Shown here: positions 27,001 to 56,866 of the stretch, one piece after another | Layout of the letters: every line of letters starts with the position of its first letter | Position numbering within the stretch: the stretch's first letter is position 1 | Assembly (NCBI GenBank): GCA_047967505.1 | Contig: CM106538.1 | DNA from: Dipteris shenzhenensis | Lineage: Eukaryota | Length of the DNA stretch: 64,000 bases | Strand: one strand, 5' to 3' | Position numbers and translations under genes: made by a program | Notes under the pieces: model-generated | The model's input: the letters and a program-made list of their open reading frames with translations, nothing else | Database searches by the model: none | Told to the model about the DNA's origin: nothing

Positions 27001-27512
27001 GATAGATTAGCTTGGACTCATAAAGAGAATCTTGAGATAGTGCAAAGTGCTTGATTGATATTACTTCAAATGAACCTCCCTTTTATAGGTGAGGGTACTT
27101 ACATCCATTTTGCTTGCTCACATGTGGGATATCTCCTCCATGCCATGTGGCAGCTTACCCTTTGCTCATACCTTTGCTCTACATGTGCTCATGGCACCAT
27201 ATCTCAACAAGACTATTGTCAGAAATAGATTACTTTGATGAGTCAAAGCCAAGAACGATATACTGTGATAATCAATCGGCTCAAGCATTGGCCAAAAATC
27301 CAGTATATCACTCCAGGACAAAGCACATTGATGTCAGAGAGCAGTTCATCAGAGAAAGAGTGTTACTTGGTGACATCACACTACAGCATTGTGATAGAAA
27401 AGAGAATGTTGCAGACATCTTTACCAAACCACTCGGTAAAGAGCTAATCGAGAAACACCAACTAGCTCTTGGTTTGACGCAGAGGAAGGACATTCCCATT
27501 AAAGGGGTGTGA
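24067..27512 (+). pseudogene. pol: Copia D RT C-terminus and RNase H, split by element A1
   Basis: LGIEF...TITRPDI at 24070-24347; SSIEAEY...WLRRL|LSEID...YCDNQSA...RTKHID rejoined across the AGACT TSD. Confidence 0.9.
24632..27209 (-). mobile_element. Non-autonomous LTR retroelement family A copy 1 (2.58 kb, no gag/pol)
   Basis: 324-bp LTRs 24632-24955 and 26886-27209 (about 2 mismatches); TSD AGACT; PBS at 26874-26885; PPT CCTCCCCTT after 24955; no retroviral motifs inside. Confidence 0.95.
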
Positions 27513-32167: not shown

Positions 32168-32169
32168 GC

Positions 32170-34234
32170 TCTGTTGTTACACCTGGAGTAAGGAAGACCA
32201 GGGATGTTTTGAGAGCACCTGGAAGTGAGCCTATTTTGCGCAGGTCTACCAGGGTTAGGTATCCAGTGGATAGGCTGAAATATGATGGATTTATAGCCAT
32301 TCACTATGCCTATATGGTCAAAGTGATACAGGAACCAGAACCCACTTCTTTTGAGCAAGCCATGGGAAATGAAAAATGGGAGAAAGCCATGGATGAAGAA
32401 ATGGATGCCTTGGATGCTAATGCTACATGGGAATTGGTGCCTTTGCCTAAAGGCAAGAATGCAATTGGCTGTAAGTGGGTTTATAAGATCAGGCACAATG
32501 CAGATGGTTCTGTGAATAGATACAAGGCAAGATTAGTTGTCAAGGGGTATGCACAGACATATGGCATTGATTATGAAGAAACTTTCAGCCCGGTTGCAAG
32601 GATGGCAACCGTAAGAGCAGTCATTGCTATGGCTCCATCAAAGGGATGGTCTTTACATCAAATGGATGTAAAGAATGCCTTCTTGCATGGTGATTTGCAA
32701 GAAGAGGTCTTTATGGAGCAGTCAGTAGGTTATGTTCATGCTATTCATCCTGAGTCTGTTTGCAGGTTGAAGAAAGCCTTGTATGGCTTGAAGCAAGCAC
32801 CTAGAGCATGGTCTGACAAGATAGGATAGTATCTTGTCACTATTGGCTTTCAGATTTCCAAGGCAGATTTCTCACTCTATGTGAGAAAAACAGAGAAAGG
32901 GATTATGCTGCTTGTCATTTATGTTGATGATTTGATCATCACAGGTGATAGTGATGAAGATATCCTTCACGTGAAAATGCTATTGAAGCAGAAGTTTGAG
33001 ATGAAGGATTTGGGAGAGCTGCGTTATTTCTTGGGCATTGAGGTGATTAGATCACCAAGTGGGATACAGCTCTTGCAGAGGCAGTATGGATTGGACATGC
33101 TGTCCAAATATGGGATGACAGGCTGTAAGCCTATTTCAGTTCCTTTGGAGCAGAATGTGAAGGTGAGCGCAGATGCAGGTGAGCTTCTGAAAGACCCTAC
33201 TATGTACAGACGCATAGTAGGAAGTTTGATTTACATGACTATTACCAGGCCAGATTTGAGCTATGCTGTTGGGTTGGTAAGTCAGTTTATGCAGGCTCCA
33301 AGGAAACCGCATTTGGATGCGGCTAGATGCATACTCAGGTATGTAAAGTCCACATTGCAGTATGGACTATTTTATGAGGCTGGGGTTCAGATACAGTTGC
33401 ATGGATACACTGATGCTGATTGGGCTGGTAGTATTTCTGATAGACGATCTACCAGTGGATATGTGTTCTCTTTTGGGAGTGCTGCAGTCACTTGGAGCAG
33501 CAAGAAACAGCCTACAGTTGCCTTATCGAGCACAGAGGCTGAGTACAGGGGTGCAACAATGGCTGCATGTGAGGTAGCTTGGTTGCATAAGCTACTCTAT
33601 GATATGCATCAGTCTACAGATGGGCCAGTTGTCATTTATTGTGACAACATGAGCAGCATACACTTGGCAAAGAACCCAGTCTTTCATGCTAGAACAAAGC
33701 ACATTGAGGTGCATTATCACTATGTGCAGGAGAAGGTTTTACTAGGTCTTATTGATCTAGTTTATGTCAGCACAGAGGATCAGGTAGCTGACATATTCAC
33801 GAAAGCATTGGGTGTAGAGAAGCTACGCAAGTTCAGAGACCTGCTTGGTGTGCAGGAATTGGGATTGAGCTCGAGGGGGAGTGTTGAGATATCGAGCTCC
33901 ACTTGCGATATGCTAGGGTGACCGTTGTGTATTTATGTCACCGACTTGTTAGCTGGAGATGCGGTTGGTACACCACCCACGAATAATAGCTGGATGACAG
34001 CTATCCTTATCTACTCTAGTTTGTGGCTCAGTTAGTATGCCACCTTAGTTAGTTGAGTTTGGTTTGAGACCCACATATAGGGTTCTTCTACTTTCTTTGT
34101 ACTAGAGTTCTTTTGGCTTTCACAACTAAGAAGAGGAAAACTGTTTTCAGCCTCCACCTTTGTGTGTATTCCCCCATTGTGATTGTGAGAAAGCCTCAAG
34201 TGAGACTCCTTCCCTCTCTCCCACTATCTTCACA
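32170..34234 (+). mobile_element. pol: Copia C copy 3: RT-RNase H and 3' LTR
   Basis: ORFs 32098-32829 and 32881-33921 separated by one in-frame TAG; PPT GAGGGGGAG then LTR 33882-34234. Confidence 0.92.
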
Positions 34235-36749: not shown

Positions 36750-38779
36750 TGTTGAGATATCGAGCTCCACTCGTGATATGCCAGGGTGACCATTGTGCAT
36801 TTATGTCACCGACTTGTTAGCTGCAGATGCGGTTGGTACACCGCCCATGAATAATAGCTGGATGACAACTATCTTTATGTACTCTAGTTCGTGGCTCAGT
36901 TAGTATGCCACCTTAGTTAGCTGAGTTTGGTTTGAGACCCACATATAGGGTTCTTCTATTTCTTTGTACTAGAGTTCTTTTGACTTACACAACTAAGAAG
37001 AGGAAAACTATTTTCAGCCTCCACATTTGTTTGTATTCCCCCATTCTATATGTGAGAAAGTCACAAGTGAGCTTCCTTCCTTCTCTCCCACTATCTTCAC
37101 ATGGTATCAGAGCCTTGTTCATGGTAAGGAGCTCAAGAAAGCAAACCAAGTTCACGGTGTCTTGGTAAGAGGACCAGTGTTGCTTTCCTTTTTCGAGTTT
37201 GGGAGCAAATCTCTACAGGTAGCACAGCAGGAAGTGCAAGAGTGCACTGTCTCAGATTGAGATGCCCTTCGCGATGTGGCGAGAGGCCGTTTCGGGGCTC
37301 GTTTTGAAGGCGGAAGTTCTTCATAGGCACTCATAAAAAGGCCCTATTTTTGCTGGGTGACCACTACTCTGCAAGTCGGTGAAAAGTTGTTGCAGAAATT
37401 GCATCATATGCCTGTGCGCAGAGACATTGGGAGTTATAAAATCATCCTTATTGCTTGTTCATGCAAAATCGTCACTAGGAAGTGACTGTGTGGTCAAGGG
37501 AAGTAGCAAGCTAAGGGTGTCCACTTTTTGTTCACTCCCCAATCCTAAGGAGGTGGAAAAACAAGCTTTTTAGCACACAAAAATGCAAATCTCACCTACT
37601 TCCCTATGGATCTAGTCTTTGAAGTCTTCTGACACAACATCACAGTTGCTATTGTGCACACAATCGTATAGTCTGATCGAAAATTCGATGCACACACAAA
37701 AAATTTCTTTGTGTCACACGGCATGGTTCCAGGGTGGTCACACGTTTGTCACGAACAAAGAGTGTCATATAAAATTCTAAATTTCTCACTCATTTTAGAT
37801 TAAATGTTATTGAAACTTTGTAAGTGGTCTCTTTACATTATGTAGAGCTTAACTTGATTTATTGGTATTTTTTTGAATGATTTATCTAATTATAAATAAT
37901 TATTTATAATAAATAAAGTCATAAAATACATGCATTTTAGTAGCACACCACATTTTTTTAGTATTTTGAATAATTAAGCAAATCCAATTCGGTGGAAGGT
38001 TAGTAGGCACATAAGGGTGTGTGGTTGAATCATCAAATCCCAAATCCAACGGTTAGATTTAGGAAGATTGAAGTTTAATTTTTACTTTTACTCCTTAGAG
38101 GATCAACAAAGAATATTAAAAATAAATCTAGTAATTCTCAAACATAACCAAACATTTCAAAAATGTCAATATTTTTAGTCCTCTGCATGATGAATAAGAG
38201 GAAAAAATTTTGGTTAAATTTGAGCAAGGGAAACGTACGATATGGCCTCCAAGAGTGAAATCTCCCTTTTGTGGGTGAAAAAGGGCCACCCAAGCCTAAT
38301 ACCAAGACAAGGTAGGCTTGGTATTAGGCTTGGTGAGGTAGGCTAGGAGCATCACCGATCCTAGTGGCAAGCCTTTGGAGTCTGCATGCTGCCCATGTGG
38401 AAGGCTGAGTCATCAAAACCATGCCACGTTGTTAGACCACGTGGTGCCATCTCATCAAGCAGATGTGACATCACTCCTTGCCATGTCACCTTACATTGCC
38501 ACACGTGCTGCCACACGTGCTGCCACATGTGCCACCTCATCATTCCACATCATCAGCCATGTGATCACACAATGCCACCTTGGCATACCTCCTCTCCTGG
38601 CCACGTCACCAATCCCTCCACCTCAATTTGCCATGTCATCTACCACCTCATGAATGCCAACTCGTCATGCCCAGTACCACATCATGACCATGCAGGAAGA
38701 GACTATATCACCACATCATGACCATGCATGGTGCCACATCAGCCAGATGCATACACATGACGATGTGCGATGCATACAA

Positions 38780-38918
38780 TACCTCGATCGAGGTACATAT
38801 GATGGGTGAGGCATACATTACCTCGTTCGAGGTATGTGACCGAGGAGACATACAGATACCTCGATCGAGGTTCATACATACATGCATGCGCAATGCACTA
38901 AATACCTCGATCGAGGTA
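38780..38918. repeat. Left array of the palindrome TACCTCGATCGAGGTA (4 copies, one degenerate)
   Basis: Copies near 38780, 38819, 38857 and 38903. Confidence 0.92.
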
Positions 38919-39054
38919 TAAGCTCTGATCGCGGCTCTGGGCATAGCAGACCTCTCCACCAAAACTAAGCCAATTAGTATCAATCTTAGCACCTCTCCAC
39001 CAATAATAATGAAGAGCAATCTAAGAGCAATCTAGTGGATGAGTTGAGGCTCTC

Positions 39055-39059
39055 TATAA
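39055..39059 (+). promoter_or_regulatory. Candidate TATA box of the transposase gene
   Basis: CTCTATAAG about 90 bp upstream of ATG 39149, downstream of the palindrome array. Confidence 0.4.
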
Positions 39060-39148
39060 GACACCACGTTTTGGTTCATTTCACCCATTCTTAGCCATTC
39101 TTGCCTCCTCATCACTTTGTCACACCTTCCATCCTACTTTCATTGAGA

Positions 39149-42061
39149 ATGGGTTCTCAAAGCCGTAGAGCTAGTAGACGTGAAAGATGTAGGAACCCCC
39201 CCCCAAATCTCATTGACGAGGAGCGCAAGCGAAAGGCTCGTGAGCGCAAGAGAGCCTCTAGAGCTCGAGCTCGCGCTGCCACCACTGATCCACCTCCAGC
39301 TCTACCTCTACATCCCACCTCCACCCCCACCCCCACCTCCATTGTCCCCCCATGCTCATCCGCTCCCCTACCTCTAGCCTCCGCCCTTCCCCTAGCCACC
39401 TACATTTTGGCCTCCACCTCTACCTCTTCCCCCTCCACCCTCCCCCCTCCCCCTCCCCCCGCTCTGCTTGGCGCCTCCCTTCCCCCGTCCACCCTACCAT
39501 CTCCCATTGATCCCATTGCCCCACCTTACAGTAGCAGTGTTGCTTCACGACGTGACTTGCCGAAGTCCACTATCCGTCGTCGTGCTAGCAAGATTGTGCA
39601 GTCTTTTTTTTGTGACCTCACGCCAGCTTCGCCGTCTTCTCTTCTTACGTCCCTGATTGATCACCCTGACTTGGTAGAGTGTAGGAGGCTTGCTGGTCTT
39701 GGTGCACGTAGAGATAGGGTTGTATCTAGCGAGGTCCTTAGCAGTGTTCGACGTTCCTATGCTTCTATTAAGCATAGGAACTCCAGTGATGCCTTGGCAG
39801 CACGTCGTGCTATTGTGGCTGCCATTAGTAGACCTCATATGATAGGCCATGTGCGTACCGCTTCACGTCTTCTTCAGATTGCACCGTGCACATTGCGAGC
39901 AGGCATCATTAGGAGGCAGAGTCTAGAGGATAGTGAGACTGATGCTCTTTGGGCTTCGAGTGGTCGTGCACCTCGCTGCGATCGATTGTTGGATGATTCC
40001 ACTAGGTCCTTCATACAACAGTTTTGGGAGGAGCATTGCAGAGCATCCCCGGTGTTCAAGAAGGCATTGCGGAAGAGGGTGTCACGCGGTGTGTACATTG
40101 AGCATGGTGCATGTTTTTTGGAGTGTACCCAGACTGAGTTGTACACTCAGTTTGTAGAGGTGCACCCGGAGTTCAAGATTGGGCAGAGGTCATTTGAGCG
40201 ATGCAGGCCATGGTTTGTGCGATGCTCTCAGGAGCGTGACACATGCTGTTATCGCTACCATGTGGATTTTGGATTGATGTATGACATATTCCGTTCCCTT
40301 GATGGTCATAGGGGAGTGGTTCCTACTAGCCCTCGCGACTTCATTCATTCCATATTGTGTACACGAGATGGTGATGCTTTATTCCACTCCCTTGATTGTG
40401 TGGAAGGCACGTGTACTTTGTGTGGTGACTTTGCCAGAGTGCCACGAGTTGCACTAGATACTTGTGATGTGCAGATGGTTTGTTGGCAGCAGTATGAGTA
40501 CTGTACCTTGACATTAGATGGTGGTGCACAGTCGAGGAGGTTGCAGCTTGTGGGGAAGGAGACACCACGTGTTGTATTCATTGACTATTTTCGAGGGAAG
40601 CTGTACCGCTACATACACCACTCGCACACTGCGAAATGGGAGGATCGTCAGTTTCGTGCATGTTTGAGGACATTTCCTATAGGGGTGGTTGTCTCAGTGG
40701 TGGACTTTGCGGAGAATTACACCTTTGCACCACAGCATGAGATCCAATCGGAGTATTATTTCTCCGAACAGGTGACGTGTGATTGAGTATTGATTTTTTC
40801 CCCGCCTCATTATATTGAATTATTTCAATAGTCATATTTTTTTTTCAATGCCATATTGCAGGTTGCTATATTTGTGCACATTAGCTATCGTCATGCACAG
40901 GCTCATGTGGATGGCATTGATAGCACCATGGACTCACGCATCATTGTGCGAGAGTATCACTTCTACATTAGTGATGATCGATCGCATGATGCCCATTTTG
41001 TGCAGCATTGCTTCACTTTGCATGATAGTTTCTTGAGGGATCATGGTGTCACATGGCAGCGGCGCTGGATTTGGTCAGACGGTTGCGGCGGTCAGTTCAA
41101 ATCCGCTAGACAGTTTTATTGGTTCTGCAGATGGCACCGTGAGACAGGCATTCCGATCACATGGAGCTACTTCGAGACAGGGCACGGTAAGGGAGAGCAC
41201 GATGGTGCAGGTGCTTGCGTGAAGCGTGCTTTGCGTCGATACCAGTTGCGTCACAGTGCCGATCGCTTCAAGGATGCACATGATGTGGTGCGGTGGTGCA
41301 GCCAGCACTTATCCACTAGTGCTACGTCCTCGTTTCAGTCGCGTGACGATAGGGTGGTGAGCCGGTATTTTTGGTGCGTGGACATTGGGAGTCTTGATCG
41401 GTCGAGGCCTTTCGATTGTCGTTCTGTGCCTGGCACTCTTGATTTCCATTCCATCAGGAGTGTAGGTGAGTCTCACCCTGCGATCTTTTCTCGACGGTTT
41501 GCATGTTTTTGCTCTGCATGCATTGATGATGATTGGGGAGGGTGCTCCATGATACCATGGGCCGATCCATGGATACGGCGAGTGCTTTCTCCCTTCCAGC
41601 CTTGGGAGGAGATACATGATGATCAGGATGCGGGATTCAGTTCCTCTAGAGATTATGACCAGCTTACAGATATTTTGCGTATTGGTGATATCTTCGCGGT
41701 TATTGCTTCGGAGGGCAATGAGGAGGGTGTGGATTATTACTTGTTGCGATGCTCTATGCTGAAGAGTGTGCTGAATGAGGATACAGTGGATGGGCATGGG
41801 ATGCACTTCAATGCTCATAGCATGATTGTCGGTGGCCACTATTTTCAGCAGATACAGAGGCGTGGTCGCTATATTGAGTTCCAGGAGTACATGGCGGATC
41901 GGGAGGCATACATGTATTCTCATCTTGTTGTTGGGATCAAGATTACTTTGAGTCGTGTTCGCACTCGCAAGGCGACGTCCACTCCACGATGGCGCCTTGC
42001 AGTGGCGGATCACGAGAGCATACTTGCAACTATTGGCATGAGAGCTGATCCTGAGGAGTAG
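39149..42061 (+). CDS. DDD transposase, Sola2-like, ~940 aa; exons 39149-40771 and 40862-42061
   Basis: Phase-0 GT-AG intron 40772-40861 joins ...QHEIQSEYYFSEQ|VAIFVH...; catalytic-type motifs VVDFAENY, WSDGCGGQFKS and GHGKGEHDG; upstream FERCRPWFV...TCCYRYH; C-terminal CFCSAC...C; no internal stops. Confidence 0.85.
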
Positions 42062-42394
42062 CACATTACATATCTTATTTTTTGGGATCATCAGTTGATC
42101 AGATTGATTTTTATTGGGTATCACTAGTTGATTACACTTTTTTGTATTCGATATGTATTGGCTCACTGTGTGACCGTACCATTGTAATTTTCATGGACTC
42201 ATATTTTGTATTTCACTATGATGGCTGTATACACGTTCATACACATCATTGTATTAGATTCTATTTTTAACATGATGTCCGATGTCTTCTCAATGGGATT
42301 TGTTGTGTTTGTAATACAAAAAATTGTTTATTAGTAGTAATGTTGTAATTTGTTTTGTGCATTAGGACATTTTAAAAACGTGACTAAGAAAATA

Positions 42395-44463
42395 GCGCAC
42401 GTACTAACGAAATACGCGTGTGGACTTGCTTGTTGGGGATGAAACTTTGCACGACTCTTAGGCCACCCTAGCCAATAGTCCACGCGAGATTTGGTCTGAA
42501 TTGATTTGGTGTGCGCCACGTGGAAGGTACAATGCGTACATTTTTACAATCCCTACTAGCACTCGTGACTACGTATGAGCTATGGCGCATGTACTAACGA
42601 AATGCGCGTGTGGACTTATCTGTTGGGAATGAAACTTCGCACAACTCTTAGGCCACCCTAGACATACATCCACGCAAGATTTGTTCTCCAACTTATTTGG
42701 TATGCGCCACGTGGAAGGTATAATGCGTTCATTTTTACAATCCCTACTAGCACGACTACGTGTGAGAAATGGCGCACGTACTAACCAAATATGCATGTGG
42801 ACTTATCTGTTGGAGATTAAACTTTGCACGGCTCTTAGGTTACCGTAGACGTACATCCACGCAAGATTTGGTGCCCAACTGATTTGGTATGCGCCACGTG
42901 GAAGGTACAATGCGTACATTTTTGCAATCCCTACTAGCACGACTACGTATGAGCTATGGCGCATGTAATGAGGAAATACGCGTGTGGACTTATCTGTTGG
43001 AAATGAAACTTCGCACGACTCTTAGGCTACCGTAGGCGTACATCCACGCAAGATTTGGTGCCCAACTGATTTGGTATGCGCCACATGGAAGGACAGTTGC
43101 GTACATTTTTACAATCCCTACTAGCACTCGTGACTACGTATGAAAAATGGCGCACGTACTAATGAAATACACACGTGGACTTATCTGTTGGGGACGAAAC
43201 TTCACACGCCTCTTAAGCTACCCTAGATGTACATCCATGCAAGATTTGGTCTCCAACTGATTTGGTATGCGCCACGTGGAAGGACAAATGCATACATTTT
43301 TACAATTTCTACTAGCACGACTAAACCCTAAACCCTAAACCCTGGACCCTAAATCCTAAACCCTGTTGGGCATGAAACTTCACACGCCTCTTAGGCTACC
43401 CTAGACGTACATCCACGCAAGATTTGGTCTCCAACTGATTTTGTTTGTGCCATGTAGAAGCAATCCCTACTAGCACGGCTAAACCCTAAACCCTAAACCC
43501 TAAACCCTGGACCCTAAATCCTAAACCCTGTTGGGGACGAAACTTCACACGCCTCTTAGGCTACCCTAGACGTACATCCACGCAAGATTTGGTCTCCAAC
43601 TGATTTGGTTTGCGCCATGTAGAAGCAATCCCTACTAGCACGGCTAAACCCTAAACCCTAAACCCTAAACCCTGGACCCTAAATCCTAAACCCTGTTGGG
43701 GACGAAACTTCACACGCCTCTTAGGCTACCCTAGACGTACATCCACGCAAGATTTGGTCTCCAACTGATTTAGTTTGCGCCATGTAGAAGCAATCCCTAC
43801 TAGCACGGCTAAACCCTAAACCCTAAACCCTAAACCCTGGACCCTAAATCCTAAACCCTGTTGGGGACGAAACTTCACACACCTCTTAGGCTACCCTAGA
43901 CGTACATCCACGCAAGATTTGGTCTCCAACTGATTTTGTTTGCGCCATGTAGAAGCAATCCCTACTAGCACGGCTAAGCCCTAAACCCTAAACCCTAAAC
44001 CCTGGACCCTAAATCCTAAACCCTGTTGGGGACGAAACTTCACACGCCTCTTAGGCTACCCTAGACGTACATCCACGCAAGATTTGGTCTCCAACTGATT
44101 TAGTTTGCGCCACGTAGAAGCAATCCCTACTAGCACGGCTAAACCCTAAACCCTAAACCCTGGACCCTAAATCCTAAACCCTGTTGGGGATGAAACTTCA
44201 CACGCCTCTTAGGCTACCCTAGACGTACATCCACGCAAGATTTGGTCTCCAACTGATTTGGTTTGCGCCACGTAGAAGCAATCCCTACTAGCACGGCTAA
44301 ACCCCAAACCCTAAACCCTAAACCCTGGACCCTAAATCCTAAACCCTGTTGGGGACGAAACTTCACACGCCTCTTAGGCTACCCTAGACGTACATCGACG
44401 CAAGATTTGGTCTCCAACTGATTTGGTTTGCGCGACGTAGAAGCAATCCCTACTTGCACGACT
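42395..44463. repeat. Tandem satellite: about five ~188-bp monomers, then seven ~165-bp monomers containing (CCCTAAA)n
   Basis: GTACTAAC-like anchors near 42401, 42591, 42778, 42964 and 43156; CCCTGTTGGG anchors at 43361, 43526, 43691, 43856, 44021, 44179 and 44344. Confidence 0.93.
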
Positions 44464-45992
44464 ACACGTTAGCGTACCACCAAAGTCAAAAGAAAATAGT
44501 AAAATTAAATTGTGGCCTAACATGTCACACCTTCCTTGTACTCCCATACATGAGTGGAGTTTAAAAGGGAGAAGTGGGATTGTTAATATGTGTATATTTT
44601 TTTGGTGCATAGCCTGTGCAACAACCCTTTCTTTTTACATAAACCAAATACCAACACTTTTCCTTATACCAACCGCCAATCCTTTCTCTTGTACATAAAC
44701 CACTAAATGCAAAAGAAAATAGTGAAATAAAATGGTGGGCTAGCATGCTACACCTTCCTTGTATTCCCGTATACATGCATTAATTGCCAATTGTGTTGAT
44801 TTCTCTTCTTTATGTTCATTATCTTTTATACATGCATAATAATTAGATTGGTGCATTGGCAAATGTCATATTAAGGAAATTGAAATAGTCCTTAGAAACT
44901 TGGAAGGCATATGCGATTGTGATTTGGAAGGCACATGTGATTGTGGTTCGAATATGACAAATAATTAGGTCTTGTTTTCTTTGATCACCAATTAGCACAA
45001 GTATTGTTAACAATAACAGACAAATTAAACACTGAGTCATAATAAATAACAGCAAAATCATGCAGAGGACAAGTCTAACTCCATTTTTGAAAAAAATCCC
45101 CTAAAAATTTATATTTTTTAAAAATTGTAGGGACAAAATATACGCTTCATGTCAATAATATTAAAAAACTAGAATTGTGAAAAAAGAATGCATAAAATAT
45201 TACTTATATTTTATTGCAGAACCTAAAAATGTCTAGTATTACCATTTGCAAAAAGTATTCTCTCCTTTAATTTAAAAAACATGACAAATTGCAAAGGAGA
45301 AGAAACTGCTTCATTCAACTAAGAGAGTTGCTAGAGCTTTTTCTTTGAAATACCAATCGTTTTCTATGCAAGTGCCCATATCAAATTGAAAGTTGGTAAA
45401 ATTGATGTTACTTTAATATCTAATTTCATTTGATGAAACAATTTTACATTGGGCTATGGCATTGTCTAAAAAAAGTAATTTTCTTTTTATACAAATTAGT
45501 TTATCAAATGGTTGAATTTCAACATATTTTGATATTAAGATCGGAAGGCTAGATTTGGAAGCATGAATATGACAATAGTTGTCTTTTTGAAAAATTGATG
45601 AAAATTTGGATTTTGAAACACACTTTATTGACAAACATGAATAGAATAAAATTTTTGTTTAAGAAATGAAAAACTTTTATCCGCAAAATAAAATTTTCAT
45701 CCAAAATAAGATGAATTTTGATATGTTTAATGTTTAATGTTTGCAATTAATGTTTAATGTTTACAATTACTTCACATGGCATTCTTTTTTGAATACCTTA
45801 TGTATTAAACAAACTATAAACTGAGATAAACTGAGATAAACAAAGTGTGAAGAACATCATGAAAGTACGAAAATGCTCATACATCATAAAAGTGGGAACA
45901 ATATCATGAAAGTACCAAAATGAATCTGTACATCATCATCATCATGCTACAAAAGTGCATCCCTATACAAGAAACGTGTGAAGCCTAAACAA

Positions 45993-48900
45993 TCAATCTG
46001 AATCTGAATCTGATAACTCTACATATGATCCTCTAGTGGAACGATGACGTGGCTCCTGTATGACTCGCTGCCCAACCGTCCGCTGTGTGCCCTCAGGCAA
46101 TGCCGGCTCAGATGGGCCAGCCTCATCACCTGCATGAGATGGGCCAGCCTCATCCTGATGAGGAGGAGGGCATGCTGCACGCGCCACTGCTGCCATCTCT
46201 GCATCCCTCGCCTCCTCTATGTACGCGCGTCTCAGCTCCCATAGCCGTGCATCTGCGAATACTCGTGCCTCAAATCCAGCGCGAGTAATCGTCTCTACAT
46301 GTGCAATACGCTGGTCTCGGCCCCGCCCTAGCTGCTGCTCCACCCACTGCTGCAATGATGTCTGCAGCTCTGCCTCTCGCTCAATCCGGCGTGCCTCCTC
46401 CGCTCGTGCCTCGTCACCTGGCATGAAGTCATCGTACGAAAAGCGGCGTGGAACGCATGATGCAACCACTGATGTATCCGCACCCTCCTGCATCAGCAAT
46501 GCTCTCTGTGCCTCCTCCCTGTAGTGCTCTGTTAGGACTACACGGGCGAATGGATCAACAGCCTGACGATGACCAGGATATAGATCATCCATGCCCAGTC
46601 CTCTGTATGTCGCCACATCAATGTCGGCAAAGCATACCAGGCACACTGAACGTGCCACCATGTGGCGGGTCATGCAGTGGAGATGTGCGATGTGGCCGCA
46701 CCCTAGACCAAACCACTCTACGGTGTCAAAGTCCTCGTGGCAGAGGACACAAGTGGAGGTAGGAAGCCTCGCTACGACTGCTGCGTCTATCGGTGTCCTA
46801 GTCGGCACATCTACAGGAGGAGCAGGGTATAGGGCCACACTGGGGTCGATCCTATGGCGTGACGGTGACAAAACATGTGTGCCTCAGGATCTATGGAGCA
46901 CTCTAAGGTGGATGAAACCTGTGTGGAAACATGATGAAGAGAGTGCTCATGACATGTATCTCAAGTCAATTAGGTTCCAAGATAGATTAGCTTGGACTCA
47001 TAAAGAGAATCTTGAGATAGTGCAAAGTGCTTGATTGAATTACTTCAAATGAACCTCCCTTTTATAGGTGAGGGTACTTACATCCATTTTGCTTGCTCAC
47101 ATGTGGGATATCTCCTCCATGCCATGTGGCAGCTTACCCTTTGCTCATACCTTTGCTCTACATGTGCTCATGGCACCACAACTCTCAACACCTCCCCTTG
47201 GTGCCATGATCCTTTGGCTACTACAAGGTGGTCAGATGTGAGTTACAAATCCATCACCTCCCCTTAGTGCATGCATGCTACTTAAGGTGGTCAAGTGTGG
47301 CTTCTACATGTCAATACCTCCCCTGGGTGCTTTCATAGCTACTCTCAGGTGGTCAGGTTTGATTACAAAACATAGGCAAGGTTGGCAAGGTTTTTGCTTT
47401 TCAATACATTCCATTGATGTCACCTTTTGGCTCATGGCTTGATGACGAATCGTTTGCTTCTTTGCTTGGAGTAGCTACCTGCATGATGCTTTGTTCTTCC
47501 ATGTGCCTTGATGCTTTATGTGTGGATGCCATGCTTTCTGCTATGGTCATCTCATGCACTTGTGCTTTTGGCATTCTTTTTACATCAATGTTTGCATTCA
47601 TGCTTTGCTTTTTCCAATGGTTGCAAAGGTCTTACCAATTGAATTCTTTCAATATTAGCAGTGTCTAATTGCATACAATGATTCTGATCTGACAAACGCG
47701 TAGAGCTCGAAAAGACGATCACTTTTCCTTTTTGGAGCGTGTGCAAATTCTTCTTGGATTGCAAGTTATGGCTTGTTGATGCTTTTGTGAAGAAGAAGGG
47801 CCTTTGATGATGTGGCACAGGGATTCACATGTTGAATTCTATACTGTGCTTAACAAAGGGCTCTGTGCTTAGGTGGCACTTAACTAATCCTACCCCTAAC
47901 CATGTGCCTTAACCATGGTTTAATTTAACCACACTAAACCTTATCTGCCACGTGGCATAGACTAGAGCACTGACCAGACTTGGTTCACTTAACCATGGTT
48001 TCTTTTGATCTACCACATGGCAAAAAACTGACAAAGCCCATACCTAACCGTACCTAGGGGGGGTTTACTTGACTAACCCTGTCTAAATCTGATCTGCCAC
48101 ATGTCAGGTAGTGAGAACCTTGGCTTGAACCTTTGGAGTTTCTGCTCATGGCGCGTCGTCGTCGTTGTTGCTCAGGCGGGTGAAGCCGCAGTTGTTGAAC
48201 ATGTCTCTAGATCCGGAGTTGTGAGCGCTTTCTTCCGTGGGCATTTGCAGTGGAGTCGAGGCGCTGTGACTTGGTGAAGCTTTGCGAGAAGGAGGCTGTG
48301 GAGCCTAGGCGCTGTTGCTGTGTGGAGGCGGAGCTGCAAGGGCTGGTCTGTTGGAGCGCTGCTGTGCGTCACGAGCTTACAAACTGCCTCCCCTGTCTCC
48401 AGCCCAATGGTTGGTGGTGATTGAGAGCGACGCCTGCCAGGGAAATGCTCTAGCTTCTCTCCATCACTTGCTTTGAAGTCTCCAACATGAGAGTCTCCTT
48501 CTAAATTCCGTAACAAATTACCACAGCAACTGTGTAGGGCTGCATTGCCTTTGTTGAGGTCGTCAGGCTACCGGTAGGGCTGGCGAGGTTGCAGACAGGT
48601 AGGCAGAAGCTTAAGCTGCTTCGTAAATGCTCATGACTCTAGGTCGTAGCCTTCCGAGTATCTCCCTCTCTTTCTCTTGGAGAAGAAGAATAGAGATGTT
48701 TCTCTCTCAATGAGCAAAAAAAAAGACCACTCAGGAAGAATGAACCTCACAAGAACTCTCATAGACACCCAAGAGAAAGAATGGAAATGTCTCACAAATG
48801 AACAAAGAGGAACTCTCCATGAGCAGACAACTAAAGAAATATGGACGGAATTTTCTCATCATGGGAATGAGAGAATGAACTCACTTGATCAAGAACACTC

Positions 48901-50450
48901 ACATTCTCTCAACCTAAACTAAAACTAATCTAGGAGAACTCTTGAGATCCTAAAGCATGCATACTACTAATCTAGACTTAGCTAAACCTATGCTCTGATA
49001 CCATGACAAAACATGTGTGCCTCAGGATCTATGGAGCACTCTAAGGTGGATGAAACCTGTGTGGAAACATGATGAAGAGAGTGCTCATGACATGTATCTC
49101 AAGTCAATTAGGTTCCAAGATAGATTAGCTTGGACTCATAAAGAGAATCTTGAGATAGTGCAAAGTGCTTGATTGAATTACTTCAAATGAACCTCCCTTT
49201 TATAGGTGAGGGTACTTACATCCATTTTGCTTGCTCACATGTGGGATATCTCCTCCATGCCATGTGGCAGCTTACCCTTTGCTCATACCTTTGCTCTACA
49301 TGTGCTCATGGCACCACAACTCTCAACAGACGGATCACGACTGATATGCCTCAACTGCAAGATATAGTGCTCTGCGCGATGGTATGCTATGCATGTCCGA
49401 ATCCTCTGCTCCTCCAAATCTGTCTGCAAGAGTCGTACGCGAGACTCCATCTCCTGACGCAAGAGTCGTACGCGAGACTCCATCTCCTGACGCAATAGAT
49501 GTGCCTGCAATGCAAACATGTCGCGTACATGGTGAGAATTAACCAAAAAACTTCAGTTCAAAACACGCTACAAAAAAATAAACTAACATAATCAAAATAA
49601 CTAACCTCATCCCTAGACTCGGCCAACACAGCCTCCAACTCTGCAATCCGTCTGTCTCGAGCCTCCAACTCGTGCTGAGGCGCCGTAGATGTGGGAGGTG
49701 GTGTAGATGTGGGACGCTCCATCGATGACCGAGGTGGGGGAGGTGGAATCGCAATAGATCTCGATAGGGCCGAGACCATGTGCTGCAAGGATGATGCCAC
49801 TGAATGAACATCTCCCCTAATCTGTCCTCCCACCGCTCGCAGTGCCGGTGCAGGGATGGTGTGCAACTCTGGTCCCTCGCGTCAACGCCGAACACCTACA
49901 ATCTGCCGCTCCTGGCGCCCCATCCTACCACGTCCCGCTCCTGATCCTGGACGGGTACTGAGGTAGTCCACCCGATGACCAAGGACAAACTCAACATAAA
50001 GCTGCATGGCAAACGACCTCGCTATCTGGCGGTTGTGAGGCAACCGACCACCATTCGCAGCAAGATATCTCGGATAAATGTGTGCTGCTATGATGGGGTG
50101 CCTACACCGTAAAATATGCAAGGGGAGCCCTGATCGTGGTCGCTGGCCCTCGGTGTGACCATCCCAAAACATGTCGTCCAAGGCCTCCCTGTGATGTGAC
50201 TCCCGCTCAAACAACTGTCGAATCGCTCTCCAATCCAAGCCACCACCAGTGATCTCCGCCTCGGCCTGTGCCTGAAAGCTATCCACAACATCCTCAACTG
50301 TCTCCAATCGACTCAGAGCCTCAATAACTGAATCCAGGCTCGCAACCAAGTGAGGGGGTGCCCTAGCATCCTGCAGTGCCCTCATCTCAGCTCTCAGCAT
50401 CTCTATCTGCATACGAATAGTGGTGCTAGAACCTATGCGCTGGCTGGCGC
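45993..50450 (-). pseudogene. Transposon cargo gene: coiled-coil plus RING-H2 zinc-finger protein, disrupted
   Basis: RING-H2 CVLC-x13-CGH-x2-H-x2-C-x10-CLVC in ORF 45993-46871; frame restored across the GACGG TSD (RDPS|RHRIDP); phase-0 GT-AG intron 49605-49505 (SRDE|AHLLRQE); in-frame TGA at 49882-49884. Confidence 0.8.
46866..49328 (-). mobile_element. Non-autonomous LTR retroelement family A copy 2 (2.46 kb)
   Basis: 325-bp LTRs 46866-47190 and 49004-49328, identical by eye; TSD GACGG; PBS at 48992-49003; PPT after 47190. Confidence 0.95.
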
Positions 50451-52499
50451 ATGCACAAAAAAAACACATGGAAATTAATATTCTATTTGGGTAATGAAAA
50501 TAATATTCTATTCAATATGACTTATAATCTATTTACGCAATGAAAACTATTTGTACGTACTCCTTGATGAGGTAGATCCTATGCACCTACCGACCGGTAG
50601 ATGGGCCAAATGTGTGGCTCAATATTAATCAATATTATTAATAATTCTTAATTTTGATTAGAATTTTTTCACTCTAGTCGTTGCATTTTAAAACTTACAT
50701 CTCTCAAGTATTTTCTCCTTATATGTTTCCCTTTTTTCACTTTCTAAGGTTTGGTTAATAAGACCTTCTTTGAATGCTTTACTGCCTTGGGTTTGCAATA
50801 GATATGGAGGAGATAGAAGGATACCTAATACATTACTTTGAACGATACACAAGCAAGGCGCATCTAGTATTTCTCGGACTACACATTAAAAATGAGAGCG
50901 GGTTCACACTACAGACCTTTTAAAGCGAGAACTTTGAGAAAATAATTAAGCCTTCTCAATATTATCTATTTTGGTTGGGCAATCCACCTCAACTACTGGC
51001 CATTCCTATAGATCATCACTTGGTTCAAGACATTTTGTATAAGACTCACTCGACTTCTAGTTGTAAAAATAGTTTTGGAATGAGATCATCCACATACGTA
51101 GCAACAACAAAGGGCACAAGATCCCTAGAAGAGGATTCAAAAACTTTGAAAATTAAATCCTTGGATGTCCCTATGCAATGGGAAGGGTTGCATACGATAA
51201 CTAATGTTAATTTTGGTTGAGCTCAAGTAATAAGCGTCACCGTTGCCTATGGTTGGACTAGCAAGAAAGAGACCACCCTTGCTTACAATGAAACTAGCAT
51301 ATAATTCCTTGAGCATGTGGTTGACATTCCATGTGTGACATAGTTTCAACGAGGGAAAGGAGATATGTAGCATCCGCACTATTTTGGTTATGAGGTGGTT
51401 CACGTGATTATTGATACAAAGTCTTTTTGGGAAAACATCTTAGTCGTTTGTAAAAGACAAGATAAATGTTGTTAACATTAGTCATAGGTTTCCCTACGGT
51501 GCAAAAAGGGATGTATGTGTGCCACATGGCGAGCTGCCATGTAGCAAACAACATGGAATGGGATGCTTCAAATGTCGACTCTTGAAGGTTATGGAGTTCT
51601 CTCTCTCTTAAGTCTCTTATCTATGATCATTAAGGGATGATTAGGAGAGATTCAGTCATTAACAGGCTCTATTTGAACTTAGGTCTATAGTTGATCAAAA
51701 CACTTGCATATATTAGCATGAATGTGGAATGAATATAGATCCACTAGAGTCCCATGTGCAATGAATGTTAGGTATTCTAGTTAAACTTTCAGTTTCTCTA
51801 TGGCGTATTTCTTTCTTCTTATACATATAAGAGAAGTAGATGAATTATGGAACTAGACAACAAACATGATCAAAGTGCTAGATCTAAAGCATGCCATAGT
51901 GATAGCATAAGAATCTCAAACAGTTTATAGGCACAGACCGTAATATTCAAGTTCTTGAAGACCCATCCAAATATTCTCAATCTTGTAATATTCTTTTTTC
52001 AGTTATGCTAGAGTCTATGCATAACTTAGAAGAATTAGACATTTGCAACTCCATGTCTTCTTAAGGTCTAAGCCACTATTTCATGTCTTCTTAAGGGATA
52101 TTGAAGATTTGGACTAAGCCACTATCTAGGCATTTCCAAGCTATAGCCTTATCATGCATGCTTAGTCTAATCAATCTATTGACTAATAGGGGACATATGC
52201 CTTCAACTTATTTCCTAGTAGAATCGATCCTTACTAATTGCCAAATAGTTAAAGGATGATTTATCATTAGTAATTTCCCAATATATTAGGGATGATTACC
52301 CAAGCTTAAACCTAGTTTCCTTCTAAAGAACTTGCTTGTCCCAAAGTGTCTAGTCAACTTCAAGCTTTGGTCACCAACCATGTCACTAGTCAATCTTTAA
52401 TGTCCAACTCCAATAGTTGACTAGTAGGTTTATGTTTGTGTATTAATTCGATAAGTCGAGCGAGTCTTATACAAAATGTCTTATTAATTTGATAAGTCG

Positions 52500-54060
52500 A
52501 GCAAGTCTTGTGCCTCATTAAACGTTTTTTAAATTTAAAATTTTCACATTTTAAATTTTAAATGTCGTAATTCAAAAAAAATTAATAATTTACAAATGCA
52601 TTTCAAATTTATAAATACTTAAAAATTATTCCTATGAACGTTTTTTATTTAATAGAAAGAGCTCTATTTAACAAAAAAAAATCTCATTTCACATTTTAAA
52701 TAAAAAATGTCATAATTTACAAATTTCAAAAAAACATTAAAATGCATTATAAATTTTGAAAATTTTTATAATTTTCCTTATAAACTAAAATTTAATTAAA
52801 TTCTACCAAAAAGAAAATGCTACATTAAAAAAACAGAAATATAGAACTCCTAATTCAAAAATTTTAAAAAAATTTACAAATGCATTTCAAAATTATAATA
52901 TTTTATAATTATTAATATGAACGTTTTTTTAAAATACAATTTCATATAAAAAAGCTCTATTTTGAAAATACAATTTCATTTTCACATTTTAAATAAAAAA
53001 TGTCATAATTCATAAATTTCAAAAAAACATTATATTGCATTTCAAATTTAGAAAATTTTTATTATTTCTCTTTTAACCTAAAATTTTTTATTATTTCTCT
53101 TTTAAATTCTACCTCATAAAAAAAACAGAAATATTTAACATTTTCACATTTTTAATAAAAAAAGCCTCATTAAACGATTTTTAAATTTAAAAATTTCACA
53201 TTTTAAATTATAAATGTCGTAATTTAAAAATTAAAAAATAAAATTTACAAATGCATTTGAAATTTATAAATATTTTATAATTATTAATATGAACTTTTTT
53301 TATTTACTAAAAAAGGCTCTATTTAAAAAAAATAATTAATTTTCACATTTTAAATAAAAAATCTCGTAATTTATAAATTTAAGAAAAACTAAATTTATAA
53401 TGCATTTTATAATTTTTCTTATAAACTAAAATTTTAAATTACGTTTTTTAAAATTAAAATTTTCACATTTTAAATTATAAATGTCGTAATTTAATAATTA
53501 AAAAAAAAATTTTACAACTACATTTCAAATTTATAAATATTTTATAATTAACTGCAATCAACGTTTTTTTATTTACTAAAAAAAGCTCTATTTAAAAAAA
53601 AAAAAAATAATTTTCACATTTTAAATAAAAAATCTCGTAATTTATAAATTTAAGAAAAACTAAATTTATAATGCATTTTATAATTTTTCTTATAAACTAA
53701 AATTTTAAATTACGTTTTTTAAAATTAAAATTTTCACATTTTAAATTATAAATGTCGTTATTTAAAAATTAAAAAAAAAAATTTCAACTACATTTCAAAT
53801 TTATAAATATTTTATAATTAATAATATCAACGTTTTTTTATTTACTAAAAAAAGCTCTATTTAAAAAAAAAAAATAATTTTCACATTTTAAATAAAAAAT
53901 CCCGTAATTCATAAATTTCAGAAAAACATTAAAATTTCAGAAAAACATTAAAATGCATTTTATAATTTTTCTTTTAAACTAAAATTAAATCAAATTCTAC
54001 ATAAAAGAAAATGCTACATAAAAGAAAATGCTACATAAAAGAAAATGCTACACAAAAGAA
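52500..54060. repeat. Very AT-rich degenerate tandem repeat
   Basis: Recurrent TTTTCACATTTTAAA, AAAGCTCTATTT and ATGCATTT blocks; ends in (AAAAGAAAATGCTACAT) repeats. Confidence 0.85.
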
Positions 54061-54184
54061 AATGCCAACCTGGACTCTCCCGCTCCTGCTCCGTCCATCT
54101 CCGTCGAACTCCGTTCGTCGCTCTCCGTCGCTCGCGCTCTTCCGTCGAAGTCCGGCAAATCCGAAATCGGTGAATGAGGCAGAG

Positions 54185-54872
54185 CTCGATCGAGGTATGC
54201 GGAATGAGGGGGGTCGCTCTCCTTTTATAATAAAAATTAGGGTTTACCTACCTCGATCGAGGTATTCTTTGCATGCGCATACATCACGGTACATATACCT
54301 CGATCGAGGTATTGGCATGCCACGATACCTCGATCGAGGTATTCTTGACATAACCATGCATCTCGTTGGCATGCCACAATACCTCGATCGAGGTATTCTT
54401 TCCATGCGCATACATCCCGGCACATATACCTCGATCGAGGTATGGCCATGCCACGATACCTCGATCGAGGTATTGTGACATGCCCATACATCTCGGTACA
54501 TCCACGTCGATGGAGGTTTTGACATGCCACGATACCTCGATCGTGGTGTGTTGGCGGAAATGGGATGCCAAGTCATGTGTCCACGATACCTCGATCGAGG
54601 TATGTCATCCGCCCTGTTGGCCGCCCTTTCGGATGGCACATACCTCGATCGAGGTATGCTGGACATGCCACGTGACCTCGATCGAGGTTGAGCTGGATGG
54701 CCACAATACCTCGACGAGGTAGATGTGGCATGTGTAGCTGGCCTGCCAGCAAACCTCGATCGAGGTACAGGCTCGGTTCGGCAAAAAAGCTACGTACCTC
54801 GATCGAGGTATGGGCTAGGCTCGGTTGTGCTCGTGTGTGATTTTCATTGGAGCTTATACCTCGATCGAGGTA
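54185..54872. repeat. Right subterminal array of the palindrome TACCTCGATCGAGGTA (about 16 copies including degenerate ones)
   Basis: Copies spaced about 30-65 bp apart, often preceded by CATGCCACGA. Confidence 0.93.
54222..54229 (-). promoter_or_regulatory. Candidate TATA box for the RING cargo gene
   Basis: TATAAAAG on minus, next to a telo-box-like AAACCCTAA; followed by a GC-rich leader and ATG at 54098 with a GT donor at 54069. Confidence 0.35.
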
Positions 54873-56866
54873 TAGGAGACCGAAGCAAAACCTTTGTATT
54901 TTCACTCGAGCGGGTGTCACACTCACCCGAAAGTGGTCCGGAAGTGGACACCCTTAGCTTGCTACCTCCCTCAATACCACTTTCATTAGTTCTGCAAATT
55001 TGCCTGTGTGAGGCAAAAGCTGTATTTTTTATAGTGACAAAATTTTTTGCAGTGTTCTATAATGGCATCTGATTCTCTTTCACAGATTGTTACTGAAAAG
55101 TTTGACAAGAACAACTTCCAAGCATGGAAGTTTAGAATGACGAATTTCCTTATGGGAAAAGGCTATTGGGAGTTCATTATAGGAAATGAAGAAAAACCAG
55201 TTCTTCCTAATGTTCCCAATCAATAGGAAATGCAGGCATTTAAAGGATGGCATGAGAGAGCCAGAAAAGTTATGTATTGGCTGTCTATCAGTATTTCAGA
55301 TTCTATGATTGTGCATATTCAGGATGCAAGTATGCCAAAGGAGGCATGGGATACTTTAGCAAAAATGTACAGCACAAATATGCAAGCCAGGAAAATGCAA
55401 CTCAAGCAAGAGTTGCACAATATGCAGAGAGAAAATATAAGCTACCAAATGAAGGTGAAGAAAATTGCAAATGCACTTGCTTCCATCGGGTTGCCAGTGG
55501 AAGATGATGATTTGGTTTCTGTGACCTTGAATGGTCTAGGAAAGGATTATTCATAGTTTCAGACATCCATTGCCATCCGTGAAAAATTTCCTGATTTTGA
55601 GGAGTTGTTGCTCTTCTAATTTCTGAAGAGCAGAGAAATGGTGGTGCATCTTCTTCAGGAGGAACTTCAAAAGAAACTATCTTCTACTCAAATGCTGGAA
55701 GAGGTAGAGGCAGAGGTAGAGGTAGAGAAGGCTGATCTGGAGCCGTGGTAGAAATCAAAATATGCAGCAAACTCAAGAAAACTAGTCCTATGGAGGAGGA
55801 CATGGTAACTCTAGAGGCAGGGGGAGCCAAAGAGGCCGTGGTGGATGGCAGAGAGGTCAAAATGCAAACAGCAATGTTGAATGCTACTATTGTGGTAAAA
55901 TGGGTCATATGGCTAAAGACTGCTACAAAAAGCAGAATGACATCATGAATGGAAAATTGCAGCAAGGGAATTATGCATCTTCTAGTAGACAGGGTGATGA
56001 CAGAAATGAGCATCTGTTTATGGTGCAGCACATGACCAATTCTGTGACAAGTGCAAAAGAAAGAAATGATGTGTGGTATGTTGACTCAGGTGCATCAAAC
56101 CACATGACAGGTCATGCACAATGGATGCAGGATGCAAGGAAATTGGAAAGACCATGATTTGTGGAGACTGGTGATGATACTACACATCCTATTGTGCAGA
56201 TTGTTAAAATTCCTTTGTCTATGCAGGATGGGAAAAAGAAATACCTGTCTGATGTATTTCATGTCCCGAACATCACCAAGAACTTGGTTTCTGTTGGTCA
56301 AATGGTTGAGCAGGGGTTGCAGGTCAAATTTAATCCTCATGGATGCTTTGTTGAGGATATGAAAAATAACGGTCGCTTGATAGCAAAAGGAAAGAAGGGC
56401 AGGATGTTTACATTGGATGCGTACATGCCTGAATTGAGTGCAACAATGTTTGCACATGGGACCAGTGTAGTTGCAGATATTGATATCTGGCATAAACGCA
56501 TTGATCATGTTAATGTATAGCGACTTAAATCAATGCAAGCCCAAAATATTGTTGCAACATTGCCTGAATTCAAGGTTGCAGAAATGCATAAGGTATGTGA
56601 AGCCTGTCAATTTGGAAAACAGCCAAGCAAACCATTTTGTAGGCATGTTCAAGAGAGTAAGAAGTCATTGGAATTAATCCACTCTGATGTGTGGACTACT
56701 AAAGCTGCATCTATTGGAGGCTGTCATTATTTTGTCACTTTTATTGATGACTACAGCAAAAAAGTTTGGGTGCATTTTATGAAAAAGAAAAGTGAAGTGT
56801 TTGGGCACTTCAAAGATTTTAAAGCTATGGTTGAAAAAGAAATAGGCTTGCAAATAAAATGCCTAA

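Follow-up and report, generated by a model that had tools for sequence, protein, structure and literature searches.

The 64,000-nucleotide stretch of Dipteris shenzhenensis DNA considered here (NCBI GenBank assembly GCA_047967505.1, contig CM106538.1; the whole stretch is hereafter called the window) contains a DNA transposon bounded by terminal inverted repeats (TIRs), in which a transposase gene (open reading frame 1, ORF1) is accompanied on the opposite strand by a gene for a RING-H2 protein (ORF2). From sequence comparison and structure prediction, we hold with moderate confidence that ORF2 is the second, element-encoded gene of a two-gene transposon and that its product is a RING-H2 E3 ubiquitin ligase dimerized through a coiled coil. 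The parts of this reading differ in standing; that ORF2 is borne by the element and selected is well supported by the sequence comparisons, and a ligase function is plausible. The predicted protein of ~620 aa would comprise, in order, an N-terminal module, a coiled coil that is probably a parallel homodimer, the RING-H2 domain, a long helix, and a conserved hydrophobic-acidic C-terminal tail.

ORF2 as a probable gene of its transposon

ORF2 occupies 50511..45993 on the minus strand and reads in frame through a 101-nt intron and a 2,463-bp insertion of a long terminal repeat (LTR) element (Table 1). Two of its stop-to-stop ORFs, 50511-49882 and 49881-49558, are one frame, split solely by a TGA (49884-49882; context CGT TGA CGC). 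Removal of the intron fuses ...ELEAVLAESRDE with AHLLRQEMESRVR..., the upstream residues being ...AESRDE, and excision of the LTR element together with one copy of its target duplication leaves 1,950 nt that read in frame, interrupted once within, at codon 210, by a stop. Additionally, the related protein P0025 is colinear across the insertion (its residues 11-52 align with 49465-49325 and its residues 50-371 with 46865-45996); because it aligns on both sides, the two halves of the gene are contiguous in a relative. The original prediction, made from the sequence alone, had rebuilt the gene across the same intron and insertion, and this reconstruction stands with small coordinate corrections, as do the tandem LLRQEMESRVR (two units, 49433-49498), the canonical C3H2C3 RING, the DEAGPS repeats, and the single premature TGA that it had pointed out. 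Where would translation begin? Exons upstream of ~50450 are speculative, among them the putative exon at 54098-54070, for which we looked for RNA or homologue support and found none; Met codons at 50469 and 50412 could equally be the start. In the window, ORF2 has been inactivated by the TGA and by the insertion of the LTR element, a very recent event, and the transposase frame of the same copy is intact.

A relative of ORF2 that is ~95% identical is found in high-depth contigs (word depth 340-420) from the DNA runs of an organism that we denote organism B, which fits a multi-copy element, with the caveat that depth is not copy number. This relative is without the LTR insertion (the joint 46859>49328 is present in both X5 and X2), which restricts the insertion to the copy or lineage of the window; several bins of the interior of the LTR element have a depth near 0 in organism B. 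The relative also has a single 33-nt LLRQEMESRVR unit (joint 49425>49459). Judged by this comparison, ORF2 is under purifying selection: of the 48 differences in the contig piece, 37, all in the C-terminal frame, could be classified, 21 as synonymous and 16 as non-synonymous, for a ratio of non-synonymous to synonymous substitution rates (dN/dS) of ~0.23 (binomial p = 3e-5 against site proportions), and the indels there (+GCT at 46330, -33 nt at 49426-49458) preserve the frame.

Linkage to this transposase family is seen beyond the window as well. Scanning metagenome contigs with an alignment of the transposase returned 80 loci. At one of them, L039, a transposase 39% identical to that of the window is followed, ~170 nt on and on the same strand, by a 420-aa ORF (3658-4917) that runs off the contig. 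Its parts come in the order found in the window, namely F..Q.YV..VLG.RVD[FY] as the N-terminal motif, then a coiled coil, a RING-H2, and DIDxxLYR; the ORF is matched at 1e-13 by tblastn and at 4e-19 by hidden Markov model (HMM). The N-terminal motif of ORF2, FAMQLYVEFVLGHRVDY, is common to the L039 ORF (E 1e-4) and to P0013 (E 6e-5), where it also lies ahead of a RING, and a regular-expression search for it over the 80 loci found L039 only. More weakly, with family-HMM E values of 0.003-0.009, RING-H2 frames lie 2-8 kb from more distant transposases at L036, L073=L075, and L079=L080; the L036 frame converges on its transposase, the arrangement also seen in the window, and a 349-aa coiled-coil ORF precedes it, and the L073 frame is decayed. 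In a transposase tree of 74 rows, one major clade divides at its base into a side with the window and a side with L039, and all of the weak-RING loci stand in the other major clade, in three subclades. This distribution fits long co-inheritance of ORF2 with the transposase, in numbers that are small and with relatives that share labels.

The protein family itself was collected by an exhaustive HMMER search of 1.84 billion representative proteins with the 296-aa RING frame, which gave 24 representatives at E<=1e-3, 8 of them at E<=1e-10 and 1 at E<=1e-30. The best full-length relative, P0002 (388 aa), aligns with residues 6-296 of the RING frame at 38% identity. Ten clusters of relatives were looked up, and all consist of Logan, ENA, or MGnify contigs with neither a protein name nor a named reference proteome. 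Closest of all is P0001 (66% identical over 95 residues), the sole match of a word-indexed protein search with the RING frame. This sequence is a 192-aa decayed fragment in which 4/8 zinc ligands have changed from Cys to Tyr, changes expected from the G-to-A / C-to-T decay of a silenced copy. In another relative, P0003, the coiled coil and RING-H2 of the family are preceded by a KIX_2 domain (E 1.6e-24) like that of plant Mediator-15-like proteins; by its sequence, P0003 may be a chimeric or domesticated derivative.

Could ORF2 instead be a captured host gene or gene fragment (Pack-type), carried as passive cargo with no function for the element? We regard this as highly improbable. ORF2 spans a complete gene that has an intron and a stop codon of its own and conserved termini, and although plant TIR elements often capture host fragments, the search of 1.84 billion representative proteins yielded no near-identical parent, the best full-length relative being 38% and the decayed fragment 66% identical; likewise, none of the ten relatives that were looked up comes from a named reference proteome. 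The fusion of P0003 to KIX_2, a domain typical of host Mediator-15-like proteins, shows that the ORF2 family can recombine with host genes. A dN/dS of ~0.23, rather than about 1, and in-frame indels are what we find, and the same architecture recurs beside diverged transposases, at L039 and more weakly at L036 and others. With its best full-length relative at 38% identity and its dN/dS at 0.23, ORF2 was thus rejected as a Pack-type fragment. The gene is also present in more than this one copy, both in the high-depth contigs of organism B and at L039 beside a related transposase. The original inference that the gene may serve its element rather than being random captured DNA is supported in part: by its position between the TIRs, its protein family, its dN/dS, and its transposase linkage, it behaves as a gene of the element, and we consider the RING gene to be well supported by these comparisons as the element's own.

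The predicted RING-H2 protein

The zinc ligands in frame 46883-45996 are arranged as C45-X2-C48-X13-C62-X-H64-X2-H67-X2-C70-X10-C81-X2-C84, which falls within the RING-H2 spacing C-X2-C-X(9-39)-C-X(1-3)-H-X(2-3)-H-X2-C-X(4-48)-C-X2-C. All eight are invariant in an 8-sequence alignment, together with P20, D53, L68, Y93, and D100; in a 13-sequence set, five are invariant and the other three are at least 90% conserved, with the exceptions in the decayed fragment P0001. The C-terminal 30 residues follow a pattern (QRTxxxRVxQxPRxRxxxGSYxE-acidic) that is also present in P0002, P0005, and P0025. Pfam scans of the four ORF2 frames gave RING families and four weak sub-cutoff non-RING matches (among them CHIP_TPR_N, PKcGMP_CC, and DinB_2); they gave no DNA-binding family, and the conserved N-terminal module matched no known family in them. 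The zf-RING_2 cutoff is passed by P0003 (35.6), P0005 (31.9), and P0013 (28.4), and P0002 (26.2) and L039 (24.0) score below it.

Which RING proteins does the family resemble? Its profile matches 51 Protein Data Bank (PDB) sequences at E<=0.01, all of them RING ligases, led by RNF8 (7e-9), Arkadia, AMFR, RNF165, RLIM, and RNF38, and then COP1 (4e-6) and RNF4. In a protein atlas, the RING frame falls nearest generic RING clusters of giant viruses and green algae (0.87-0.90), with a recognition value of 2249, below the 2300 mark; we treat these matches as domain-level likeness. A metagenome contig scan with a 4-sequence RING alignment matched 52 stretches, of which none was confirmed. The AlphaFold model has a mean predicted local distance difference test score (pLDDT) of 65.5, with block means of 75-87 over residues 41-100. 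Within it, the modeled RING has the cross-brace fold and superposes on the RINGs of RNF12, RNF38, RMR1, and RNF165 with a root-mean-square deviation of 1.0-1.3 Å over 46-49 columns (probability 1.00, E 0.018-0.07, the E values being weak because a RING domain is small). These four comparison RINGs were solved with their E2s, that is, their ubiquitin-conjugating enzymes. Thus, the E3 activity that the original prediction noted as usual for RING-H2 domains accords with a profile and a predicted fold that resemble those of active E3 ligases. Beyond the RING, the model has a short conserved stretch, YRGLGMDDLYPG, a long helix at 157-237 (pLDDT up to 93), and a disordered tail.

Dimerization was modeled with two copies of P0002 residues 1-185, which were predicted to pair in parallel as a coiled coil, the interface following residues 2-72 at heptad spacing. 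The dimer score was 0.54, compared with 0.00 for the best control; the mark for this score is reached by 20/30 proteins solved as one-chain pairs and by 1/23 single-chain structures. Agreement between runs extends to 72% or more of the contacts, with a partner pLDDT of 65 or higher. Most likely, the ORF2 protein would recruit a host E2 and would ubiquitinate a protein in the element's interest, which may be a host factor or the transposase itself.

The C-terminal tail reads S-Y-V-E-L-S-D-S-D-S-D, with YVEL, YYEL, or YYEV in relatives. A SUMO-interacting motif (SIM) combines a hydrophobic core with acidic or phospho-serine residues, according to the consensus in PMC3174244. The acidic/serine run of the ORF2 tail fits this pattern and its Tyr at the first core position fails the strict consensus, for which reason we do not file ORF2 as a SUMO-targeted ubiquitin ligase and keep the likeness as a lead.

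A number of points weigh against reading ORF2 as a selected, element-encoded ligase. The window RING scores 22.8 bits (E 1.1e-4), below the Pfam cutoff of 27.3, and the residue after its last Cys, the "linchpin" position of RNF38/RNF4-type RINGs, is F in the window and R in 5/7 relatives. The dimer was modeled on the homologue P0002, not on the window's protein, and since coiled-coil RING dimers, such as that of RNF8, have already been solved, the favorable dimer score may come from likeness to them. The ORF2 copy in the window is itself broken by the TGA and the LTR insertion, and the dN/dS value rests on 37/48 differences, in the C-terminal frame, from one pairwise comparison. In the collapsed contig of organism B, 2 nt are inserted at 49617 and a +1/-1 pair occurs at 50143/50147, and therefore the N-terminal half of the gene there may not be an intact frame. 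As for linkage, 28/80 loci extend 1.4 kb or more past the transposase match on its downstream side, and of these L039 alone gives a strong family match; the L036-type RING is weakly tied to the ORF2 family (hhalign probability 44%, E 2.3e-4). Finally, every exon bin had a depth of zero in two RNA runs of organism B (sampled at 19 and 24 in 100); the RNA reads obtained (22 and 17) all fall in bins of the nested LTR element, 46776-49184. A search of sequencing runs for the sequence likewise listed no RNA run.

The carrier element and its nested sequences

Table 1. Positions of the genes, repeats, and nested insertions of the transposon in the window
Feature	Position	Strand	Remarks
Stop-to-stop ORFs of the RING gene	50511-49882; 49881-49558; 49552-49283; 46883-45993	minus	209 aa; 107 aa; 89 aa; 296 aa
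RING gene, N-terminal exon	49606..50511	minus	ORF opens at 50511; motif FAMQLYVEFVLGHRVDY; in-frame TGA 49882-49884
RING gene, intron	49505..49605	minus	GT..AG, 101 nt, phase 0
Coiled-coil exon part 5' of the LTR insertion	49329..49504	minus	tandem 33-nt duplication 49433-49498; IAYHRAEHY 49364-49390
RING gene, C-terminal part	45993..46860	minus	stop codon 45993-45995 included
RING-H2 (C3H2C3) domain	46632..46751	minus	motif, profile, and predicted fold
Two DEAGPS units	46110..46154	minus	sequence motif
Conserved C-terminal motif QRTVGQRVIQEPRHRSTRGSYVELSDSDSD	45996..46085	minus	aligned with C-termini of P0002, P0005, P0025
Putative first exon (MDGAGAGES..)	54070..54098	minus	in phase with acceptor near 50450; speculative
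Nested non-autonomous LTR element	46866..49328	minus	2,463 bp; two 325-bp LTRs 100% identical; target-site duplication CCGTC
Nested 1.46-kb element	51027..52482		30-bp inverted ends, one mismatch; upstream of RING gene
Transposase gene	39149..42061	plus	exons 39149-40771 and 40862-42061; 90-nt GT..AG intron; 940 aa; zero internal stops
Host TIR transposon	37498..54970		17,473 bp; inserted in copia retrotransposon
Left TIR	37498..37526	plus	29 bp, begins GGGAAGTAGC
Right TIR	54942..54970	minus	29 bp, inverted partner of left TIR
Target-site duplication TCAA, probable	37494..37497 (left); 54971-54974 (right)		compared with two empty sites
Palindrome TACCTCGATCGAGGTA, left subterminal	38782..38920		3 copies; arm is inverted counterpart of 54249-54416
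Palindrome TACCTCGATCGAGGTA, right subterminal	54251..54874		12 copies; sequence count

The bounds of the transposon are set by its target, copia sequence that is unbroken in paralogous copies at 8839 and 19440, both of which read straight through GTGTGGTCAAATACCAC, and that is split here at 37497/54973. Its TIRs (GGGAAGTAGCAAGC...) differ by one mismatch; the 30-bp inverted match 37497-37526 / 54942-54971 is at 96.7%. If the target-site duplication is the 4-bp TCAA, the ends are a symmetric GGG...CCC; 2 or 3 bp also fit, and the reconstructed empty site is one A shorter than both copia paralogues. The target copy (36750-37497 + 54973-56587) belongs to one copia family with at least 4 copies in the window that are 82-94% alike, the others listed being at 7217-9645, 18549-20203, and 30881-34234.

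We take ORF1 to be a DDD-type, RNase-H-like transposase outside any assigned superfamily, based on its sequence and on a model of a relative. It has 71 relatives at E<=1e-3, the named ones being only hypothetical proteins of Taxus, Cryptomeria, and Adiantum, and it bears the motifs VVDFAENY, WSDGCxxQFK, and GHGKGxHDGAG; the D residues of DFAENY, WSDGC, and GKGxHDG are conserved in at least 90% of 26 sequences, which gives the protein the catalytic residues of a DDE/DDD transposase (named for its acidic Asp and Glu residues). The model of the relative P0036 (mean pLDDT 82.4) has an RNase-H-like fold and matches NurA, retroviral integrases, IstA, and the Metnase transposase domain (E 6e-4 to 2e-2). 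Known sequence families offer little purchase. For example, at a threshold of 0.01, Pfam found no family in the two window transposase frames and 8 relatives, a stray sub-cutoff LRRC37AB_C match (E 0.0073) in P0057 aside; a rescan of the two window frames up to E 10 gave chance-level matches alone (E 0.16 and 0.47), a PDB sequence search with the transposase profile gave nothing at E<=1, and a search for the transposase among longer proteins found none. In the protein atlas, the nearest clusters carry DUF7869 (score 0.95), a candidate label that occurs in no paper of the literature searched.

The subterminal regions bear on what ORF2 might do. Every copy in the 64-kb window (15/15) of the 12-mer core of the 16-bp palindrome TACCTCGATCGAGGTA lies within these two regions, whose inner parts are inverted images of each other. 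Might ORF2 then be a transposition cofactor that binds the palindromes or the transposase, its RING serving as a zinc-stabilized interaction or dimerization module? Two-gene DNA transposons usually pair a transposase with a DNA-binding or recruiting partner (TnpA of CACTA, the Myb-like ORF1 of PIF/Harbinger), and 15 confined palindromes would need a binder. However, the transposase has a conserved N-terminal region of its own, shared with L039, with Cys/His clusters and a helix-turn-helix-like stretch (a weak MerR match, E 0.05), so that a separate DNA binder is not required, and the Pfam scans give ORF2 no DNA-binding family; its conserved N-terminal module, outside known families, speaks for such a partner. 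The RING itself can be argued both ways: in the window it is sub-threshold in Pfam and has no Arg after the last Cys, whereas its eight zinc ligands are invariant in the 8-sequence alignment (five invariant and three at 90% or more in the 13-sequence set) and the proteins nearest to it by profile and by fold are RING-H2 ligases with catalytic activity, whose structures include their E2s. Weighing these together, we consider a cofactor role unlikely and retain the ubiquitin ligase as our reading of ORF2.

The interior of the transposon is a mosaic, which raises the further question of whether the RING gene belongs to the host or to another nested element and came to lie between these TIRs by rearrangement in this copy. 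The contigs of organism B run unbroken over 45900-51026 with no element boundary, and at L039 the RING gene follows the transposase by ~170 nt on one contig. We therefore find rearrangement extremely improbable, even with a satellite array (42392-44600), an AT-rich array (52500-54050), two nested elements (46866-49328 and 51027-52482), and a left subterminal region with 3 palindrome copies against 12 on the right. This asymmetry has a second aspect; ~1.2 kb without palindrome (37527-38745) separates the left TIR from the 3 left copies, whereas the right copies reach to ~70 bp from their TIR, and an old insertion or rearrangement could be responsible.

The LTR element within the RING gene has TG..CA ends, a TGGTATCAGAGC primer-binding site, a purine tract, and flanking CCGTC duplications (46861-46865 and 49329-49333), and Pfam found no domain in the 3 of its ORFs that were scanned. 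It belongs to a small (~2.5 kb), non-coding, recently active LTR family, with a second full copy at 24632-27209 (LTRs 24632-24955 / 26886-27209, 99.4% alike) and a partial LTR at 1-262; in organism B, the LTR bins of this family reach contig depths in the thousands. The nested element upstream of the gene was likewise free of Pfam domains in the 3 ORFs scanned, and homology to the organism B contig ends at 51026, exactly at its left edge. The array at 42392-44600, between the convergent genes, consists of two adjoining tandem arrays with units of ~187 and ~165 bp, and that at 52500-54050, between the nested element and the right subterminal palindromes, is a 19%-GC tandem array of several interleaved repeat families, around which the depth of organism B contigs is zero up to 52450.

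Known systems and possible significance

Few accessory genes are known in plant DNA transposons, and most of these encode DNA binders (TnpA, PIF ORF1, VANC), with the role of MURB being unclear. In its logic, VANC, which the original prediction had raised as a model, is the closest known case. It is a DUF1985-type protein, and Pfam scans of the gene pieces found no VANC-like family in ORF2 (RING families, apart from the weak matches above), so that they lend no support to an anti-silencing role. As described in PMC5735166 and PMC10398659, the VANC proteins of VANDAL elements (Mutator-like, Arabidopsis) are sequence-specific anti-silencing proteins. Like ORF2, VANC is an accessory gene that sits beside a transposase in a TIR transposon and serves the element. 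VANC, however, binds DNA motifs and causes methylation loss. In ORF2 there is instead a RING-H2, and none of the known DNA-binding domains; the two are not related by sequence, and the transposase superfamily of VANDAL differs from that of this element. In biochemistry, the closest known systems are the RING ligases RNF8 and COP1, which share with ORF2 a coiled coil directly upstream of the RING; the parallel dimer modeled for P0002 resembles the one that RNF8 forms through its coiled coil and RING. Both are host genes, RNF8 with an FHA domain and COP1 with WD40 repeats, and neither has a detectable likeness to ORF2 outside the RING.

RING domains have been tied to DNA transposons before, within the recombining polypeptide itself. 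For example, PMC6446971 places a RING inside the transposase polypeptide of a Phytophthora Mutator-like element, and RAG1 ties a RING to the DDE-type Transib lineage within the recombinase polypeptide (PMC1131882 and PMC4411706), whereas here the RING is a separate gene. The RAG1 / Transib transposases are also unrelated by sequence to this transposase (no PDB match at E<=1). What, then, is the transposase related to? Sola transposases are of the "DDD" kind, and the third acidic residue of ORF1 is also Asp. A Sola2 element has an 888-aa transposase, short TIRs, and 4-bp target duplications (PMC3627910), and Sola transposases have no Pfam model (PMC5751038). The size of ORF1 (940 aa), the short TIRs, and the lack of a Pfam model recall Sola2, as would a 4-bp duplication (2 or 3 bp also fit), and membership in the Sola superfamily is thereby conceivable; the protein atlas points instead to the clusters that carry DUF7869.

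The herpesvirus ICP0 family offers a different kind of parallel, the closest in biology. Its members are viral RING E3 ligases, resembling SUMO-targeted ligases, that counteract intrinsic silencing and combine a C3HC4 RING with several SIM-like sequences. As the RING ligase of a genomic parasite, ICP0 is like the predicted ORF2 protein, and the likeness is one of functional analogy; the ORF2 profile weakly matches the equine herpesvirus-1 RING (1chc, E 0.0013), and the hydrophobic core and Ser/Asp repeats of the ORF2 C-terminus recall the SIM pattern in PMC3174244, with Y-V-E-L-SDSDSD lying outside the strict consensus. We put forward, as a tentative and rather doubtful proposal, that this transposon lineage encodes a counter-defence ubiquitin ligase, a dimeric RING-H2 protein that would mark a host factor for degradation and that would have coevolved with the transposase across land-plant lineages. 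The N-terminal module or the C-terminal tail may recognize a host silencing, chromatin, or repair factor, possibly in SUMO-modified form, which would make the protein the counterpart, in a transposon, of ICP0 or of those viral suppressors that commandeer ubiquitination.

In the literature open to our search, which left subscription journals and Repbase Reports outside, we found no DNA transposon described as having a separate RING-H2 gene. If our reading is true, a stand-alone RING-H2 gene that is conserved and under selection travels with a poorly characterized DDD transposase, and a ubiquitin-ligase activity would enter the host cell together with a cut-and-paste element. Might transposons, as viruses do, turn the ubiquitin system of their host to self-protection or regulation? 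Additionally, ORF2 provides a handle on an unannotated group of transposons, whose transposase has no Pfam match and whose companion family, in the 10 clusters looked up, has no named proteome.

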